From the IMG/VR virus record IMGVR_UViG_2541047956_000009: 8,508 nucleotides of DNA; one strand, written 5' to 3'. Positions 1-6,983 of this stretch are shown one piece after another (within the stretch, counting starts at the first letter, position 1; each line of letters begins with the position of its first letter). A program made the position numbers and the translations under genes. The DNA is from a virus. Lineage: Duplodnaviria; Heunggongvirae; Uroviricota; Caudoviricetes. The notes under the pieces are model-generated. The model made no database searches, was not told the origin of the DNA, and saw only the letters and a list, made by a program, of their open reading frames with translations.

Positions 1-2241
1 ACAGAGCTTGTGGAGGACACGCAGGCCATTGCCCGTTACGGTCGTAACGTCACGAAGATGGATGCCTTTGGCTGTACCAGTCGGGGGCAGGCACACCGAG
101 CCGGGCTGTGGCTGATTAAAACGGAACTGCTGGAAACGCAGACCGTGGATTTCAGCGTGGGCGCAGAAGGGCTTCGCCATGTGCCGGGCGATGTTATTGA
201 AATCTGCGATGATGACTATGCGGGTATCAGCATCGGCGGGCGCGTGCTGGCGGTGAACAGCCAGACCCGGACGCTGACGCTCGACCGTGAAATCACTCTG
301 CCATCCTCCGGTACCACGCTGATAAGCCTGGTTGACGGAAGCGGCAATCCGGTCAGCGTGGAGGTCCAGTCCGTCACCGACGGCGTGAAGGTAAAAGTGA
401 GCCGGGTTCCTGACGGCGTTGCCGGATACAGCGTGTGGGGGCTGAAGTTGCCGACGTTGCGCCAGCGCCTGTTCCGCTGCGTGAGTATCCGGGAGAACGA
501 TGACGGTACGTATGCCATCACCGCCGTGCAGCATGTACCGGAAAAAGAAGCCATCGTGGATAACGGGGCGCACTTTGACGGTGACCAGAGCGGCACGGTG
601 AATGGTGTCATGCCGCCAGCGGTGCAGCACCTGACCGCCGAAGTCACCGCAGACAGCGGGGAATATCAGGTGCTGGCGCGCTGGGACACGCCGAAGGTGG
701 TGAAGGGGGTGAGCTTTATGCTTCGCCTGACCGTGGCAGCGGATGACGGCAGTGAGCGGCTGGTCAGCACGGCCCGGACGACGGAAACCACATACCGCTT
801 CAGGCAACTGGCGCCAGGGAACTACAGGCTGACAGTCCGGGCGGCAAATGCCTGGGGACAGCAGGGCGATCCGGCGTCGGTATTGTTCCGGATTGCCGCA
901 CCGGCAGCGCCGTCGCGGATTGAGCTGACGCCGGGCTATTTTCAGATAACCGCCACGCCGCATCTTGCCGTTTATGATCCGACGGTACAGTTTGAATTCT
1001 GGTTCTCGGAAAAGCGGATTGCGGATATCAGGCAGGTTGAAACCACAGCCCGCTATCTTGGCACGGCGCTGTACTGGATAGCTGCCAGTATCAATATCAA
1101 GCCGGGCCATGATTATTATTTTTACATCCGCAGTGTGAACACCGTTGGCAAATCGGCATTCGTGGAGGCTGTTGGCCAGCCGAGTGATGATGCATCCGGC
1201 TATCTGGATTTTTTCAAAGGAGAGATAGGGAAAACCCATCTGGCTCAGGAGTTGTGGACGCAGATTGATAACGGTCAGCTTGCGCCTGACCTGGCGGAAA
1301 TCAGAACGTCCATCACGGATGTCAGTAATGAAATCACGCAGACCGTCAATAAGAAACTGGAAGACCAGAGTGCAGCGATCCAGCAGATACAGAAGGTTCA
1401 GGTTGATACAAATAATAACCTGAACAGCATGTGGGCTGTGAAGCTGCAGCAGATGCAGGACGGACGCCTTTATATCGCGGGTATTGGTGCCGGTATTGAA
1501 AACACCCCTGACGGCATGCAGAGTCAGGTGCTGCTGGCGGCAGACAGGATTGCGATGATTAATCCTGCGAATGGCAACACAAAGCCGATGTTTGTTGGTC
1601 AGGGCGATCAGATATTTATGAATGAAGTGTTCCTGAAATATCTGACGGCTCCCACCATTACCAGCGGCGGTAATCCTCCGGCATTTTCCCTGACACCGGA
1701 CGGGCGGCTGACGGCGAAAAATGCCGATATCAGCGGTAACGTGAATGCGAACTCCGGGACGCTCAACAACGTCACGATTAACGAGAACTGTCGGGTTCTG
1801 GGAAAACTGTCCGCGAACCAGATTGAAGGCGATCTCGTTAAAACAGTGGGCAAAGCTTTCCCCCGGGACTCCCGTGCACCGGAGCGGTGGCCATCAGGGA
1901 CCATTACCGTCAGGGTTTATGACGATCAGCCGTTTGACCGGCAGATTGTTATTCCGGCGGTGGCATTCAGCGGCGCTAAACATGAGAGAGAGCATACTGA
2001 TATTTACTCCTCATGCCGTCTGATAGTGCGGAAAAACGGTGCTGAAATTTATAACCGTACCGCGCTGGATAATACGCTGATTTACAGTGGCGTTATTGAT
2101 ATGCCTGCCGGTCACGGTCACATGACGCTGGAGTTTTCGGTGTCAGCATGGCTGGTAAATGACTGGTATCCCACAGCAAGTATCAGCGATTTGCTGGTTG
2201 TGGTGATGAAGAAAGCCACTGCAGGCATCACGATTAGCTGA
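1..2241 (+). CDS. J: Tail tip / host-specificity protein J, C-terminal ~746 aa (5' end outside window)
   Basis: Frame-1 ORF is open from base 1 (the listed GTG at 10 is an internal codon) to TGA at 2239-2241. The N-terminal part of the translation ([51 protein letters not shown]...) matches lambda gpJ as I recall it almost residue for residue; the C-terminal part is recognisably J-like but divergent. Confidence 0.93.
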
Positions 2242-2308: not shown

Positions 2309-2908
2309 ATGCGTAAATTATGTGCTGTTATTCTGTCCGCAGTAGTCTGGCTGGTTGCCGCTGGTACGCCAGCGAGCGCAGCAGAGCATCAGTCCACACT
2401 AAGCGCCGGGTATCTTCAGACCCATACTGATATGCCAGGCAGCGATGACCTGAAGGGCATTAACGTGAAATACCGTTATGAATTTACGGACACGCTGGGG
2501 CTGGTGACGTCATTCAGCTATGCAGGAGACAAGAATCGCCAGCTTACCCGTTACAGCGATACCCGCAGGCATGAAGATTCCGTTCGTAACCGCTGGTTCA
2601 GCGTGATGGCGGGGCCATCTGTACGCGTGAATGAATGGTTCAGTGCTTATGCGATGGCAGGTGTGGCTTACAGCCGTGTTTCGACGTTCTCCGGGGATTA
2701 TCTCCGCGTAACTGACAACAAGGGGAAAACGCACGATGTGCTGACCGGAAGTGATGACGATCGCCACAGCAACACGTCTCTGGCGTGGGGAGCTGGCGTG
2801 CAGTTTAACCCGACCGAATCCGTGGCCATTGATATTGCTTATGAAGGCTCCGGCAGTGGCGACTGGCGCACTGACGGTTTCATCGTGGGTGTCGGTTATA
2901 AGTTCTGA
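2309..2908 (+). CDS. lom: Lom-family outer membrane beta-barrel protein (Ail/PagC/OmpX family)
   Basis: 199-aa ORF with a signal-peptide-like N-terminus ([35 protein letters not shown]...) and a C-terminal ...[10 protein letters not shown] ending in aromatic residue. Closely matches lambda Lom as recalled. GAGAGG Shine-Dalgarno 8 nt upstream of ATG 2309; position immediately after J as in lambda. Confidence 0.92.
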
Positions 2909-2934: not shown

Positions 2935-2962
2935 AGCCCGCCGGTTCAGGCGGGCTTTTTTG
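2935..2962 (+). terminator. Intrinsic terminator downstream of lom
   Basis: Stem AGCCCGCC (2935-2942) / GGCGGGCT (2949-2956) with loop GGTTCA, followed by TTTTTT (2957-2962). Confidence 0.6.
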
Positions 2963-2972
2963 TGGAGTGGAT

Positions 2973-5330
2973 ATGGCAGCAGTAAAAATCTCAGGTGTGC
3001 TGAAAGATGGTGCGGGAAAACCAATACAGAACTGCACTATTCAACTGAAGGCAAAGCGTAACAGCACCACGGTACTGGTGAACACGGTGGCTTCTGAAAA
3101 TCCGGATGAAGCCGGACGTTACAGCATGGATGTTGAGTATGGCCAGTACAGCGTCACCCTGCTGGTTGAAGGTTTTCCGCCTTCACATGCCGGGACCATT
3201 ACCGTCTATGAAGGCTCCAGACCAGGTACGCTGAATGATTTTCTCGGTGCCATGACGGAAGAGGATGTCATGCCGGAGGCATTGCGTCGTTTTGAGGAAA
3301 TGGTGGAAGAAGCGGCACGCAACGCTGAAGCCGCCTCTCAGAGCGCAGCGGCGGCAAAGAAATCCGAAACTGCAGCGGCATCATCGAAGAACGCGGCGAA
3401 AACCTCAGAAACGAATGCAGCTAATAGTGCACAGGCGGCAGCGACCTCAAAGACTGCATCGGCAAACTCCGCGACAGCAGCCAAAAAATCAGAAACCAAC
3501 GCGAAAAATAGCGAGACAGCCGCAAAGACGAGCGAAACCAACGCAAAGTCCAGCCAGACGGCAGCGAAAACCAGCGAAACGAATGCCAAAGCCAGTGAAA
3601 CTGCGGCGAAAAATAGCCAGAATGCAGCAGCCGAAAGCGAGAGTGCGGCAGCTGGTTCTGCGACTTCAGCAGCTGGATCAGCAACTGCTGCGGCTAACAG
3701 CCAGAAAGCAGCGAAGACGAGCGAAACTAACGCAAAGTCCAGCCAGACGGCAGCGAAGACCAGCGAAACGAATGCCAAAGCCAGCGAAACTGCGGCGAAA
3801 AGCAGTCAGGATGCAGCAGCCCAAAGCGAGAGTGCCGCAGCTGGTTCTGCAACAGCGGCAGCTAATAGCCAAAAAGCTGCAAAAACCAGTGAAACTAACG
3901 CAAAGACGAGTGAAACAAAAGCAGCAGCTAGCGAGACAGAAGCAACGTCAGCCGCAACAAGAGCAGAGAATGCAGCCCGGATTGCAGAAGATGCCGCTGA
4001 TCCTGCTTCTGTCCCTCCGCTTCCTGATATCTGGCTACCCTTGAATGATTCTCTGGAAGCGATAACAGGGTATGCCCCGGGCTATAAAACAATAACCATC
4101 GGCAGTGATGAAATAACAATGCCTGTTAATGGCATATGCCAATTTAGCCGGGCTTCATCTGCAACGTATATTGATAAGTCCGGGCATATTACCGTGGCAG
4201 GGAATAACGTTCCTCGTTTTGAAAAATATGGTTTGCTGATAGAGAATCAGCGAACAAACATGTTCGTAAATAGTTTTAATCCTGATGCCTGGAATAAAAG
4301 CGGTGGTATATCTGTAACATCATCAACAGATGAATTTGAGTTTAAATATGGACGTTTCACGGTAGGAAGCGATATAGCAGGAACGACAACAGGGAGAAAT
4401 ATATGCACAGTTGCTGGTAACAAAGGCATAGATGTGACTGGCGATGATCAGTACAGTAAAGGTCCGTATGTTACCGCGTCGTTCAGGGTAAGAAGTGATC
4501 TCAATGTTCGCGCACGTATCCGTTTTGAACGGTATAACTCGGAAGGATACACCTTCCTTTGCGATGCCTATTTGTCATTACAGACCCATGAACTACAAAT
4601 TACTGGTGGCAATGCCCAGCTATTAACAGCAAACTTTGAAATCGATCCTGGTAGTGGATGGATATACTTTCAGGCAACACTGAAATGTCTGCCAGAATGG
4701 GGAATGGTTGGTACGCAGCTGCAAATTGCAGCCGACAGAGCTGTGGGGTCTTTTGCAACAGGTGACTGGATAGAAGTAACCACCCCGCAATTCGAGTATG
4801 GTGCTTGTGCAACTTCCTTCATCATAACGACAACAGAGCCAGCGACTCGTGCATCAGATTTATGTAAATTTCCGCTGATGAAAAATATGTATACCATGCC
4901 TTTTACGTTCATGGTGGAAGTCCATAAAAACTGGTTTATTTCTCATAATGCTGCACCGCGTGTCATTGATTCAGAAAATCACCAGTCCGGAGGCCCATTT
5001 ATTATGGGGTTTGGTTCTTCTGGAACTATTAGTCAGGACGGTTATTCGTATTGCGATATAGGCGGGGCTAACCGACGTGTATATGAATCATGCGGAGTAA
5101 GGGATCTCGTTATGGGATTCAGGGTTAAGGCTGACGGCATGACATGCTCATTTGCAAATAAGCATATAAGCACTGAAACAAAAACAGTATGGAAATATAT
5201 TCGTGAAGCAGCCGTGATTCGTATCGGGGGGCAAACGACGACAGGATTACGACACCTTAATGGTCATATAAAAAACCTCCGTTTCTGGAACAGAGCATTG
5301 TCAGATACGCAGCTTAAGGAATACGTATAA
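2973..5330 (+). CDS. stf: Side tail fibre protein (Stf-like): lambda-type N-terminus, Ala/Ser/Thr/Lys-rich repeat shaft, divergent C-terminal receptor-binding region
   Basis: N-terminus MAAVKISGVLKDGAGKPIQNCTIQLKAKRNSTTVLVNTVASENPDEAGRYSMDVEYGQYSV... matches the lambda Stf N-terminus as recalled. ATG at 2973 with GGAG 5 nt upstream is the likely start (the ORF track's 2967 is an upstream GTG). A long low-complexity AAKTSETNAK-type repeat region is followed by ~440 aa unlike lambda Stf, ending ...IKNLRFWNRALSDTQLKEYV, a motif I recognise from LamG/concanavalin-A-like lectin domains. Confidence 0.85.
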   Translation: MAAVKISGVLKDGAGKPIQNCTIQLKAKRNSTTVLVNTVASENPDEAGRYSMDVEYGQYSVTLLVEGFPPSHAGTITVYEGSRPGTLNDFLGAMTEEDVMPEALRRFEEMVEEAARNAEAASQSAAAAKKSETAAASSKNAAKTSETNAANSAQAAATSKTASANSATAAKKSETNAKNSETAAKTSETNAKSSQTAAKTSETNAKASETAAKNSQNAAAESESAAAGSATSAAGSATAAANSQKAAKTSETNAKSSQTAAKTSETNAKASETAAKSSQDAAAQSESAAAGSATAAANSQKAAKTSETNAKTSETKAAASETEATSAATRAENAARIAEDAADPASVPPLPDIWLPLNDSLEAITGYAPGYKTITIGSDEITMPVNGICQFSRASSATYIDKSGHITVAGNNVPRFEKYGLLIENQRTNMFVNSFNPDAWNKSGGISVTSSTDEFEFKYGRFTVGSDIAGTTTGRNICTVAGNKGIDVTGDDQYSKGPYVTASFRVRSDLNVRARIRFERYNSEGYTFLCDAYLSLQTHELQITGGNAQLLTANFEIDPGSGWIYFQATLKCLPEWGMVGTQLQIAADRAVGSFATGDWIEVTTPQFEYGACATSFIITTTEPATRASDLCKFPLMKNMYTMPFTFMVEVHKNWFISHNAAPRVIDSENHQSGGPFIMGFGSSGTISQDGYSYCDIGGANRRVYESCGVRDLVMGFRVKADGMTCSFANKHISTETKTVWKYIREAAVIRIGGQTTTGLRHLNGHIKNLRFWNRALSDTQLKEYV
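3525..3885 (+). repeat. Intragenic direct tandem duplication (~189 bp unit, second copy ~21 bp shorter) within stf
   Basis: The sequence from 3525 (aagacgagcgaaaccaacgcaaagtccagccagacggcagcgaaaaccagcgaaacgaatgccaaagccag...) recurs from 3714 (aagacgagcgaaactaacgcaaagtccagccagacggcagcgaagaccagcgaaacgaatgccaaagccag...) with few mismatches. Protein level: KTSETNAKSSQTAAKTSETNAKASETAAK...SESAAAGSAT...AANSQKAA occurs twice. A shorter degenerate SETNAK-type periodicity spans ~3340-3960. Confidence 0.75.
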
Positions 5331-5599
5331 TGCGGGATATAACATTACGATTCGATAACAGAGAACAGTTTAACGCAATTGTATATGACAGTGGCCTGTT
5401 CAGTCTTGAAGAAGAAAACGGGGTTCTTGTTGATGTTATTGGCTGCATTATCGATTACGAGGAGCCAGAAAACGAAAGATGTACAGGCATTGATCGCGGT
5501 GGTTTTTTCGTAAACATGAGGATTGTTGATAGCAGTAAAAACATATCTTCTTTAATGCCTTTCATTACGACAGATCAGCATGTAAGGACATGGGCTTAA
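5330..5599 (+). CDS. Hypothetical 89-aa acidic protein, translationally coupled to stf
   Basis: ATG at 5330-5332 overlaps the stf TAA stop (5328-5330) in the sequence ATAATG; AAGGA 9 nt upstream. AT-rich. No family recognised and no resemblance to lambda Tfa. Confidence 0.5.
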   Translation: MRDITLRFDNREQFNAIVYDSGLFSLEEENGVLVDVIGCIIDYEEPENERCTGIDRGGFFVNMRIVDSSKNISSLMPFITTDQHVRTWA

Positions 5600-5611
5600 T
5601 GGAGTAAGACA

Positions 5612-6652
5612 ATGGTTACAAAAACAGTAATTCCTGATGATATCAAAACGCTAAAATCCGACGTTAGCAAATTAAAAAACGATCAAGGGAGCTACGCAAC
5701 AAAATCATATGTAGACAATAAAACAACATGGAATAGTTATTGCAATGTAATCTATGATCAAAAGACATTGCCGACCACTGGAACTATATTTAGCGGTAAG
5801 ATTCACTTGTCAAATAAGACAGGAGAAACCGAAAACGCTTATAGTGAGATGTACACCAGAAAAAATATTGACGGTACAAAAGATACAATGACAAGGATTG
5901 TCACACACAATGGAACAAAAGGTATCTTTTGGGATTTTAGCGATCTTTACGGCGGAACATTAATTTTTCCAGGCAGTGATGGTTACCTTAAGATGGGGAA
6001 CTGTCTCATGTCGTATGGTGTGCGGGGAAGTAACGCGCTTATTAAGTTTGACTGCACAGACACATTACAAATCAAATATGCTAATCACGGGTCGACCATG
6101 ACACTAAACACGCAAGGTACGGCGTATTCTGGTGTGTCGACGTTATTATGGGGAAATTCCAGTCGTCCAGTTGTTTATGAAATTAGGGATGATGGCGGGC
6201 TTTTTTTGTTTTATGCACAAAGGAACCCAGATAAAACCTATCAGCTTGAGATAAACGGGCCATGCAAGGCAACATCATTCGACCAGGTGTCGGACAGAGA
6301 TCTTAAAGAAAACATTCGGGTTATTGATAATGCCACTGAACGCATCAGATTAATGAATGGGTATACTTACCGTCTCAAGTCTAATGGTATGCCTTATGCT
6401 GGCGTTATTGCGCAAGAGGCACTTAATGCAATCCCTGAATCAGTTGGTAGCACAATAAAGTACAAGAGCGGGGACAATGGGTCTGATGGAGAAGAGGGAG
6501 AAAGATACTATACCGTCGATTACTCAGGCGTAACGGGTTTGCTTGTTCAGGTAGCCAGAGAGTCAGACGACAGAATAACAGCACTGGAAGAAGAAAACGC
6601 AGAATTAAAACAAAGATTATCTGCAATTGAGGCGGCGCTTGCGTCCAAATAA
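5612..6652 (+). CDS. Tail-fibre-like protein with C-terminal intramolecular chaperone (peptidase S74-type) autoproteolytic domain
   Basis: 346-aa ORF, GGAG 7 nt upstream of ATG 5612. C-terminal ~120 aa (...FDQVSDRDLKENIRVIDNATERIRLMNGYTYRLKSNG...AGVIAQEALNAIPESV...DDRITALEEENAELKQRLSAIEAAL) has the S-D-x-x-x-K-E-N-I signature and terminal helical segment typical of self-cleaving chaperone domains of endosialidases and L-shaped tail fibres. The N-terminal ~225 aa is Thr/Gly/Asn/Tyr-rich and of unknown fold. Confidence 0.75.
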   Translation: MVTKTVIPDDIKTLKSDVSKLKNDQGSYATKSYVDNKTTWNSYCNVIYDQKTLPTTGTIFSGKIHLSNKTGETENAYSEMYTRKNIDGTKDTMTRIVTHNGTKGIFWDFSDLYGGTLIFPGSDGYLKMGNCLMSYGVRGSNALIKFDCTDTLQIKYANHGSTMTLNTQGTAYSGVSTLLWGNSSRPVVYEIRDDGGLFLFYAQRNPDKTYQLEINGPCKATSFDQVSDRDLKENIRVIDNATERIRLMNGYTYRLKSNGMPYAGVIAQEALNAIPESVGSTIKYKSGDNGSDGEEGERYYTVDYSGVTGLLVQVARESDDRITALEEENAELKQRLSAIEAALASK

Positions 6653-6658
6653 TATTAA

Positions 6659-6682
6659 GGGGGCCGAGCGCCCCGTTTTATT
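6659..6682 (+). terminator. Possible weak intrinsic terminator after the fibre-like gene
   Basis: Short GC stem GGGGC (6660-6664) / GCCCC (6670-6674) with a 5-nt loop, followed by GTTTTATT. The stem is only 5 bp. Confidence 0.35.
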
Positions 6683-6689
6683 GGGTAGG

Positions 6690-6983
6690 ATGAAAATGGA
6701 TATAACACCTTTCCTTCATGCACTTTGTGCTGTGGCTGCGCAGCTACTGATTGGTCTTTTTACCGGGAACTGGGCTTACGGGGCGATAGCCGGTTGTACA
6801 TTCTTCATTGCGCGGGAACACACCCAGGCAGAATATCGCTGGATTGAAATGTTCGGGCATGGCAAGCGTATGAATATGCCGTGGTGGGGCGGTTTTGATC
6901 CACGTGCATGGGATGTGGCAAGCCTGATGGATTTTGCTGTGCCGGTGGTGGCGTGTCTGCTGATCTGGATGTTGATCCGTTAA
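6690..6983 (+). CDS. Small hydrophobic (membrane) protein, ~97 aa, function unknown
   Basis: The ORF is open from 6627, but a GGGTAGGA purine tract sits just before ATG 6690 and ATG 6696 (MKMDITPF...), so the first 21 codons are probably untranslated. Two clear hydrophobic segments (LHALCAVAAQLLIGLFTGNWAYGAIAGCTFFIA and VASLMDFAVPVVACLLIWMLI). Visibly GC-richer than the genes on either side. Confidence 0.55.
   Translation: MKMDITPFLHALCAVAAQLLIGLFTGNWAYGAIAGCTFFIAREHTQAEYRWIEMFGHGKRMNMPWWGGFDPRAWDVASLMDFAVPVVACLLIWMLIR

Follow-up and report, generated by a model that had tools for sequence, protein, structure and literature searches.

A fibre gene followed by a cognate helper is a familiar pattern, and nothing reported here overturns that concept. 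In the Tfa type (Tfa of lambda, gpG of P2 and gpU of Mu; Caudo_TAP in Pfam) the helper serves the C-terminal receptor-binding part of a fibre and is encoded directly 3' of that fibre's gene, and helper and fibre C-terminal part are co-inherited by recombination. The fibre and cognate chaperone of the Alteromonas phages A5/V22 form a module common to morphologically unrelated phage families, and chaperone dependence differs among relatives (PMC10579305). Tandem fibre genes, with the distal protein attached by its N-terminus, are described for DT57C and DT571/2 (LtfA/LtfB) and for phiEco32 (gp14/gp15) (PMC4728585, PMC10713586), and in the Yersinia phage phiR2-01 the 128-amino-acid (aa) gp38-like g124 shares 4 nt, at the stop, with fibre gene g125 and is itself followed by another fibre gene. 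Here we describe a locus that bears a likeness to each of these arrangements. It lies in IMG/VR virus record IMGVR_UViG_2541047956_000009, a stretch of 8,508 nucleotides (the window) that is the right end of a lambdoid prophage, and consists of a side tail fibre gene (stf), an 89-aa open reading frame (the small ORF) and a second fibre gene. The last ~400 aa of Stf are called the head domain below, and the three genes together the cassette.

Two-way linkage of the small ORF with the fibre head domain

A first tblastn search returned copies of the small ORF at 97-100% in the lambdoid phages PhiR55_1, PhiR11_1 and PhiR47_1 and full-length homologues at ~30% in T5-like phages and Seuratvirus, and each annotated locus showed a large fibre gene, then the small-ORF homologue, then another fibre gene. 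All 50 small-ORF loci with upstream sequence carry a C-terminal ~400 aa that aligns end to end with Stf residues 387-787; the N-terminal parts of these fibres differ and their total lengths range from 480 to 1398 aa. The partner of the small ORF is specifically this last part of Stf, not the whole protein. In the reverse direction, the head domain recovered 80 IMG/VR loci, one of them on a contig that ends too early. Of the other 79, 78 have the small ORF in a 1- or 4-nt overlap with the fibre gene, and in the remaining one it is cut by an insertion sequence (IS). The earlier note had asked whether the gene order is kept with this Stf C-terminal type and whether the ORF is disrupted in relatives; the order is kept at the loci just counted and the ORF is conserved, with the IS the single disruption among 79. 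That copy (locus L072, ~3703-4107) is broken after about codon 12 by an IS3-family element, and database entry P0003 is another disrupted copy.

Among 50,697 phage records the head domain is present in 219, and it occurs in 2,344 protein clusters; hundreds of E. coli prophages carry it, as do the BASEL phages IrisVonRoten, KurtStettler and KarlBarth. The small-ORF orthologues are bas32_0023 in IrisVonRoten, a phage that depends on its lateral fibres on K-12 with restored O16 (PMC8594841), and bas22_0023 in KurtStettler. Seven phages that carry it and had been missed by the single-sequence tblastn search were spot-checked (T5-like FGS017 and IrisVonRoten, Seuratvirus KurtStettler, Drexlerviridae tunus, Dhillonvirus Ioannina, lambdoid PhiR49_2 and Vequintavirus SYGMH1). 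Each has an ORF of 85-110 aa overlapping the fibre stop, and all seven match the family hidden Markov model (E 1e-15 to 1e-45). Because many of the sampled loci come from E. coli prophages that are close relatives, and the samples are therefore redundant, what counts as independent evidence is the set of distinct backbones, which comprises at least six phage lineages (lambdoid, T5-like, Seuratvirus, Drexlerviridae, Dhillonvirus and Vequintavirus), a 106-kb plasmid and a Mu-like myophage. Our data show that the small ORF is locked to the head domain in both directions, and that this holds for six or more unrelated groups of phages of E. coli and Salmonella.

The window contains 49 ORFs of at least 40 aa, many of them spurious, so the size of the small ORF is by itself no proof of a gene. 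Its product, however, is a full-length match to PHROG 1361 ("unknown function"): residues 1-89 align with positions 1-92 of the 92-position profile at E 9.6e-31. The FGS017 orthologue carries the depositors' annotation phrog=1361. A profile search returned 349 homologous 90%-identity clusters; all the named ones come from E. coli or its phages, and none of the 349 bears a functional name. Residues M1, D3, L6, F8, D35, I37, G38, G58, R64, I65 and W88 are invariant in the alignments, N62 and R86 are nearly so (at least 90% of sequences), and the predicted order of elements is beta-alpha-alpha-beta-beta-beta-beta-alpha. The family is under purifying selection (median pairwise dN/dS, the ratio of non-synonymous to synonymous substitution rates, 0.31 over 400 pairs), and 30 near-identical copies hold 9 synonymous and 7 conservative non-synonymous variants and zero frameshifts. 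The small ORF is a real, selected phage gene, and we dismiss the reading that it is not a gene. The protein is acidic (isoelectric point 4.38; 16 D+E against 8 K+R), as the earlier note had stated, and contains no hydrophobic segment.

Single-sequence searches undercount this family: a word-indexed search gave 4 matches and phmmer over 1.8 billion representatives 6, two of which (P0007 and P0008) were rejected as spurious repeat proteins. No match above noise to the small ORF was obtained in Pfam, NCBIfam, PDB sequences or PADLOC. Public records label it "hypothetical" in all cases but one, the IrisVonRoten copy, which is labelled "tail fiber protein". The literature searched on AKFV33, DT57C, BASEL and phage 9g does not discuss the PHROG 1361 protein, and virion proteomics covering it was not found there or in the mEpimmI and Eligo chimeric-STF literature; the AKFV33 virion study identified four gel bands and no more (PMC3326045). 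PHROG 1361 is a catalogued but uncharacterised family.

The head domain is lectin-like, or carbohydrate-binding module (CBM)-like, and is a distant relative of the RcGTA head-spike fibre. NCBIfam assigns Stf residues 424-629 to the gene transfer agent (GTA) head-spike-fibre domain, and phmmer relates residues 393-642 to Rcc01080 of RcGTA (E 5.7e-4), a single flexible chain that binds capsular polysaccharide and is described as lectin-like (PMC7296036, PMC10218006). AlphaFold2 (AF2) prediction of the head domain, run as a single chain, gave a confident beta-sandwich for residues ~50-220 and low confidence for the first 48 residues and the C-terminal lobe. The first 48 residues (window 4125-4270, F.RAS.ATY..K.G....A....PRFE..GLLIE..RTN) are the most conserved stretch of the head and have the lowest predicted local distance difference test scores (29-42). 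In the most divergent loci, L043 and L044, the N-terminal part and the C-terminal lobe are what stays conserved. Low confidence and conservation thus coincide in the same parts of the domain, which would fit a unit that depends on a partner. Locus L044 (3092-5861) belongs to the Mu-like myophage and encodes a 469-aa protein with a divergent head domain, of which only the first ~70 and last ~125 residues are conserved, together with a small-ORF homologue just upstream of the baseplate genes; we take this position to correspond roughly to that of the DNA-circulation protein in Mu.

Layout and junctions of the locus

The features of the window are collected in Table 1. The start of stf is given as GTG at 2967 in the ORF list and as ATG at 2973 in the annotation of phage PhiR55_1.

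Table 1. Positions of genes, domains and signals in the window
Feature	Position	Strand	Remarks
J C-terminus	10-2241		First in window gene order
lom	2309-2908		
Terminator-like hairpin after lom	2935..2956	+	
stf, side tail fibre gene	2967..5330	+	787 aa; N-terminal phage_tail_N, Ala/Ser/Thr-rich repeat shaft, C-terminal head domain
Fibre head domain	4125..5327	+	Stf residues 387-787; lectin/CBM-like beta-sandwich module; element tied to small ORF
Shine-Dalgarno-like AAGGA	5316..5320	+	9 nt upstream of small-ORF ATG, inside last stf codons
TAATG stop-start overlap stf/small ORF	5328..5332	+	Stop TAA 5328-5330, ATG 5330-5332, shared base A5330
Small ORF	5330..5599	+	89 aa; PHROG 1361
Spacer before second-fibre ATG	5600..5611	+	12 nt, with GGAG (5601-5604)
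Second fibre	5612..6652	+	346 aa; PHROG 4563
Conserved N-terminal 15-mer of second fibre, MVTKTVIPDDIKTLK	5612..5656	+	Pattern M-x-x-x-T-x-IP-x-DI-x-x-LK
GC-rich hairpin directly 3' of second-fibre stop	6660..6674	+	
Small hydrophobic protein	6696-6983		95 aa; PHROG 1443 (unknown function); alternative TTG start at 6627 in ORF list
dinI and integrase		minus	Last in window gene order

The sequence at the stf/small-ORF junction is GAATACGTATAATGCGG (longer reading, GTATAATGCGG), and the overlap amounts to one base. Every small-ORF homologue examined has a 1- or 4-nt overlap with the upstream gene or a gap of 0-10 nt, the -1 and -4 nt classes accounting for most homologous loci, and a GGAG/AGGA-type motif is present in 7/7 distinct junction sequences inspected. 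Since stop and start overlap or nearly touch and a Shine-Dalgarno-like motif lies within the last fibre codons, the small protein is made from the fibre mRNA, right after each fibre chain. Tightly coupled translation from the fibre message is thereby supported, and the functional link to the fibre that the earlier note had read from the start-stop overlap gains further support from the two-way linkage.

The two hairpins of Table 1 flank stf, the small ORF and the second fibre. In the terminator scan the small ORF and its two gene junctions (5296-6119) were free of listed terminator-like sites, and weaker stems of 3 GC pairs fell inside the coding sequences of stf and the second fibre. The Stf shaft is made of near-tandem repeats rich in Ala, Ser, Thr and Lys (KTSETNAKSSQTAAK...; window 3310-4000, Stf residues ~115-345), and these repeats account for long spurious ORFs in the alternative frames and on the opposite strand (3265-4044 + and 3338-3778 -). 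The PHROG 1443 protein, which has no match in PADLOC, accompanies the cassette in its lambdoid versions; encoded 3' of the second fibre in the window, it stands directly 3' of the small ORF in PhiR49_2-type loci (L014, L048, L049 and L098-L101).

The full cassette, comprising the fibre with the head domain, a 93-aa small ORF, a 346-aa fibre and the PHROG 1443 protein, also occurs on E. coli Esc19 plasmid 2 (106 kb; locus L007, 2330-5889), where its neighbours are a partition ATPase and a TacA/GNAT toxin-antitoxin pair; the replicon is probably a phage-plasmid. In two relatives a 3' remnant of a lambda-type tfa (..LLEAWKKYRVLLNRVDTS..) lies downstream of the cassette (L005, 6020-6136; L008, 5886-5996), and the window holds none. 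The position of the remnant suggests that the cassette may have replaced an older stf-3'/tfa module.

The second fibre and its N-terminal peptide

The second fibre ends in a Peptidase_S74 intramolecular chaperone domain (residues 227-278, window ~6290-6445). Downstream fibres are highly varied, from 227 to 586 aa, yet have the N-terminal 15-mer in common, which is presumably a docking peptide. A DNA-pattern scan of IMG/VR for the 15-mer found 120 loci, and in all 119 with upstream sequence a small ORF lies no more than 420 nt upstream. One near-identical pair of head domain and small ORF is joined to different fibre bodies (227, 234, 346 and 363 aa), all with the 15-mer, and 15-mer identity correlates with small-ORF identity (rho 0.56). 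The pair is found with no adjacent motif-type fibre in prophages at the Rac site, PhiR49_2-type phages, Vequintavirus, locus L051 and the Mu-like L044, and the small protein conserves the same positions whether or not a locus has such a fibre. Since the pair is kept with the same conserved residues where the motif-type fibre is missing, while motif-bearing fibres always follow a small ORF, the pair is autonomous and the plug-in fibre depends on it. The 346-aa protein is thus an optional third component, dependent on the pair and not the reverse.

The Rac-site prophages (L018-L036; for example L025, 2694-4767) lie beside zntB/dbpA/ttcA, and their last phage genes are a 598-aa fibre with a different N-terminus (MIYTTGTIAVSG...) and, after a 10-nt gap, the small ORF; no second fibre follows. 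Residues ~20-70 of the T5-like second fibres (NNNLSDLADRAAAWLNVRPIGSTPLAGDP...) recur inside the single-chain fibres of DT57C (LtfA), Salmonella phage SP3 and Vibrio phage Vc1 (L016 (DT57C), 5001-5225; L134; L135), which points to the splitting or fusing of fibre genes at a joint around these residues. In Ioannina (L013) the second-fibre start MVTKTNIPADI... is present at ~4415-4500 and frameshifted relative to the annotated gene, and in KarlBarth (L017) the equivalent second fibre is split into two coding sequences; either may be a sequencing error or real decay.

Role of the small protein and comparison with known systems

We propose, as the likeliest reading and with about even confidence, that the lectin-like head domain has in the small protein a partner of its own, a factor for its assembly or folding. 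Besides the two-way linkage and the persistence of the pair in loci that lack a motif-type fibre, analogy of position speaks for this: helpers of the Tfa and gp38 types fill the very slot of the small ORF, and the gene layout of phiR2-01 is the one seen in the window. This acidic alpha/beta protein would bind the newly made head domain and be needed for its folding, assembly or competence, as a trans-acting fibre assembly factor that possibly stays on as a cap or subunit. Its likely binding site would be the conserved unit formed by the first ~45 residues of the head domain and the C-terminal lobe. Head domain and small ORF would form a two-gene unit that recombination shuttles as a block between unrelated phages, and the optional downstream fibre would plug into the finished head complex via its N-terminal 15-residue peptide, giving a branched fibre. 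Several points weigh against a dedicated partner. Lectin-like monomeric domains are not usually in need of trimerisation chaperones. A fluorescent fusion of Rcc01080 of RcGTA, made in E. coli with no such partner present, was functional (PMC10218006). The low AF2 confidence in parts of the head domain may merely reflect a shallow alignment (26 sequences). A mirror-tree test, in which small-ORF distances were compared with those of 50-residue head-domain windows and of the second-fibre 15-mer, gave moderate correlations throughout (rho 0.24-0.65, and 0.36-0.65 with the head domain); because physical linkage alone would give such correlations, the test is non-discriminating.

The earlier note had offered a chaperone, an adaptor or an unrelated moron as options. 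An adaptor role would make the small protein a permanent virion component, the socket for the 15-mer of the second fibre, with the attachment of that fibre and not the folding of the first as its primary job; we regard this as the main rival reading, if a rather doubtful one. Branched lateral fibres of two proteins are established in T5-like phages (PMC4728585), and an adaptor would agree with the small ORF that precedes every motif-bearing second fibre, with the contiguity of the three genes (spacers of 9-12 nt and no terminator-like site between them), with the single pair that serves fibre bodies of four lengths and with the correlated identities of 15-mer and small ORF. It agrees less well with the persistence of the small ORF, its invariant residues unchanged, in several lineages that have no adjacent motif-type second fibre, and DT57C forms its branched fibres with no small-ORF homologue. 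Moreover, the 15-mer could dock on the head domain itself: in Pa193 a monomeric beta-sandwich wedge protein holds a trimeric fibre via a 3:1 loop interface (PMC11456595), a precedent, by analogy, for a monomeric beta-sandwich as a fibre socket. In a tentative, wider form of the adaptor idea, head domain and small protein would be a portable socket for any fibre with the 15-residue plug (here M-x-T-x-T-x-IP-x-DI-x-x-LK), the small protein being the permanent virion subunit that builds it. If so, the socket would be a swappable universal branching joint common to lambdoid, T5-like, Seuratvirus, Drexlerviridae and Dhillonvirus phages, and would explain the free exchange of second receptor-binding fibres.

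It is improbable, in our estimate, that the small protein stays on the head domain in the virion to shape or mask the glycan-binding site, and we extend this judgement jointly to its variants, a co-adhesin of the T2 gp38 kind, or a temporary cap that keeps the head domain, while still in the producing cell, from binding too early to intermediates of host polysaccharide. Strict 1:1 genetic coupling with coupled translation would suit such a protein, as would its strongly acidic character and its polar invariant residues D3, D35 and R64 and near-invariant N62 and R86, which are expected of an interaction surface; for the fibres of Alteromonas phages, transient capping by a chaperone is a published proposal (PMC10579305). 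Yet the small protein is no more variable than the fibre head and has no hypervariable patch of the host-range type, its invariant positions are identical across lineages, and no fold similarity was found to gp38 or to intramolecular chaperone (Peptidase_S74-like) domains. An unrelated moron, or an immunity or inhibitor gene hitch-hiking behind stf, is very improbable. The gene has a superficial likeness to the second member of a toxin-immunity pair, being small, acidic, coupled and 3' of a C-terminal domain, and its place close to the end of the prophage is one in which morons accumulate. It is present, however, in strictly lytic phages (T5-like, Seuratvirus, Drexlerviridae and Vequintavirus), always in the fibre operon and fixed relative to the head domain, and that domain is similar to carbohydrate-binding modules and unlike toxins or enzymes that have a recognisable active site, for which reason the toxin-immunity reading was rejected. 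The near-absolute two-way linkage on unrelated backbones, together with the lack of a PADLOC match, thus removes the moron from the options of the earlier note, while a functional link to the fibre stands.

The head domain is among the commonest lateral- or side-fibre tips of coliphages, and loci that carry it can be annotated by a simple key: head domain, small ORF, optional plug-in fibre. Where such a tip is transplanted to retarget a phage or a lambda-based delivery particle, the small gene would probably be needed too.

Compared with the Tfa type, the small ORF is half the size and has no sequence match to Tfa or Caudo_TAP (PF02413 or related models), and its predicted alpha/beta fold is unrelated to any known chaperone, all of which bears out the unlikeness to Tfa stated in the earlier note; its client here would be a lectin/CBM-like globular head, whereas the client of Tfa is a trimeric beta-helical tip. 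The gp38 type of T4/T2 shows no homology to it, and PHROG and Pfam scans of the small ORF return only phrog_1361. AKFV33, a carrier of the cassette, is cited as a two-fibre-gene phage in the branched-fibre literature on DT57C. The DT57C locus itself has neither a head-domain nor a small-ORF homologue, sharing only the internal fibre segment, and, in contrast to the LtfA/LtfB type, the 15-mer is specific to fibres that follow the small ORF. The globular polysaccharide-binding part of Rcc01080 (NCBIfam NF048003; PDB 6tb9) is distantly homologous to the first two-thirds of the head domain, but Rcc01080 is attached to the capsid, not the tail, and is expressed functionally alone, with no small partner reported. 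In concept, the fibre-plus-chaperone module of the Alteromonas phages is the nearest analogue described. By sequence and predicted fold the small protein falls outside the Tfa, gp38 and intramolecular-chaperone families; functionally, it would take its place among the fibre helpers encoded 3' of the receptor-binding part.

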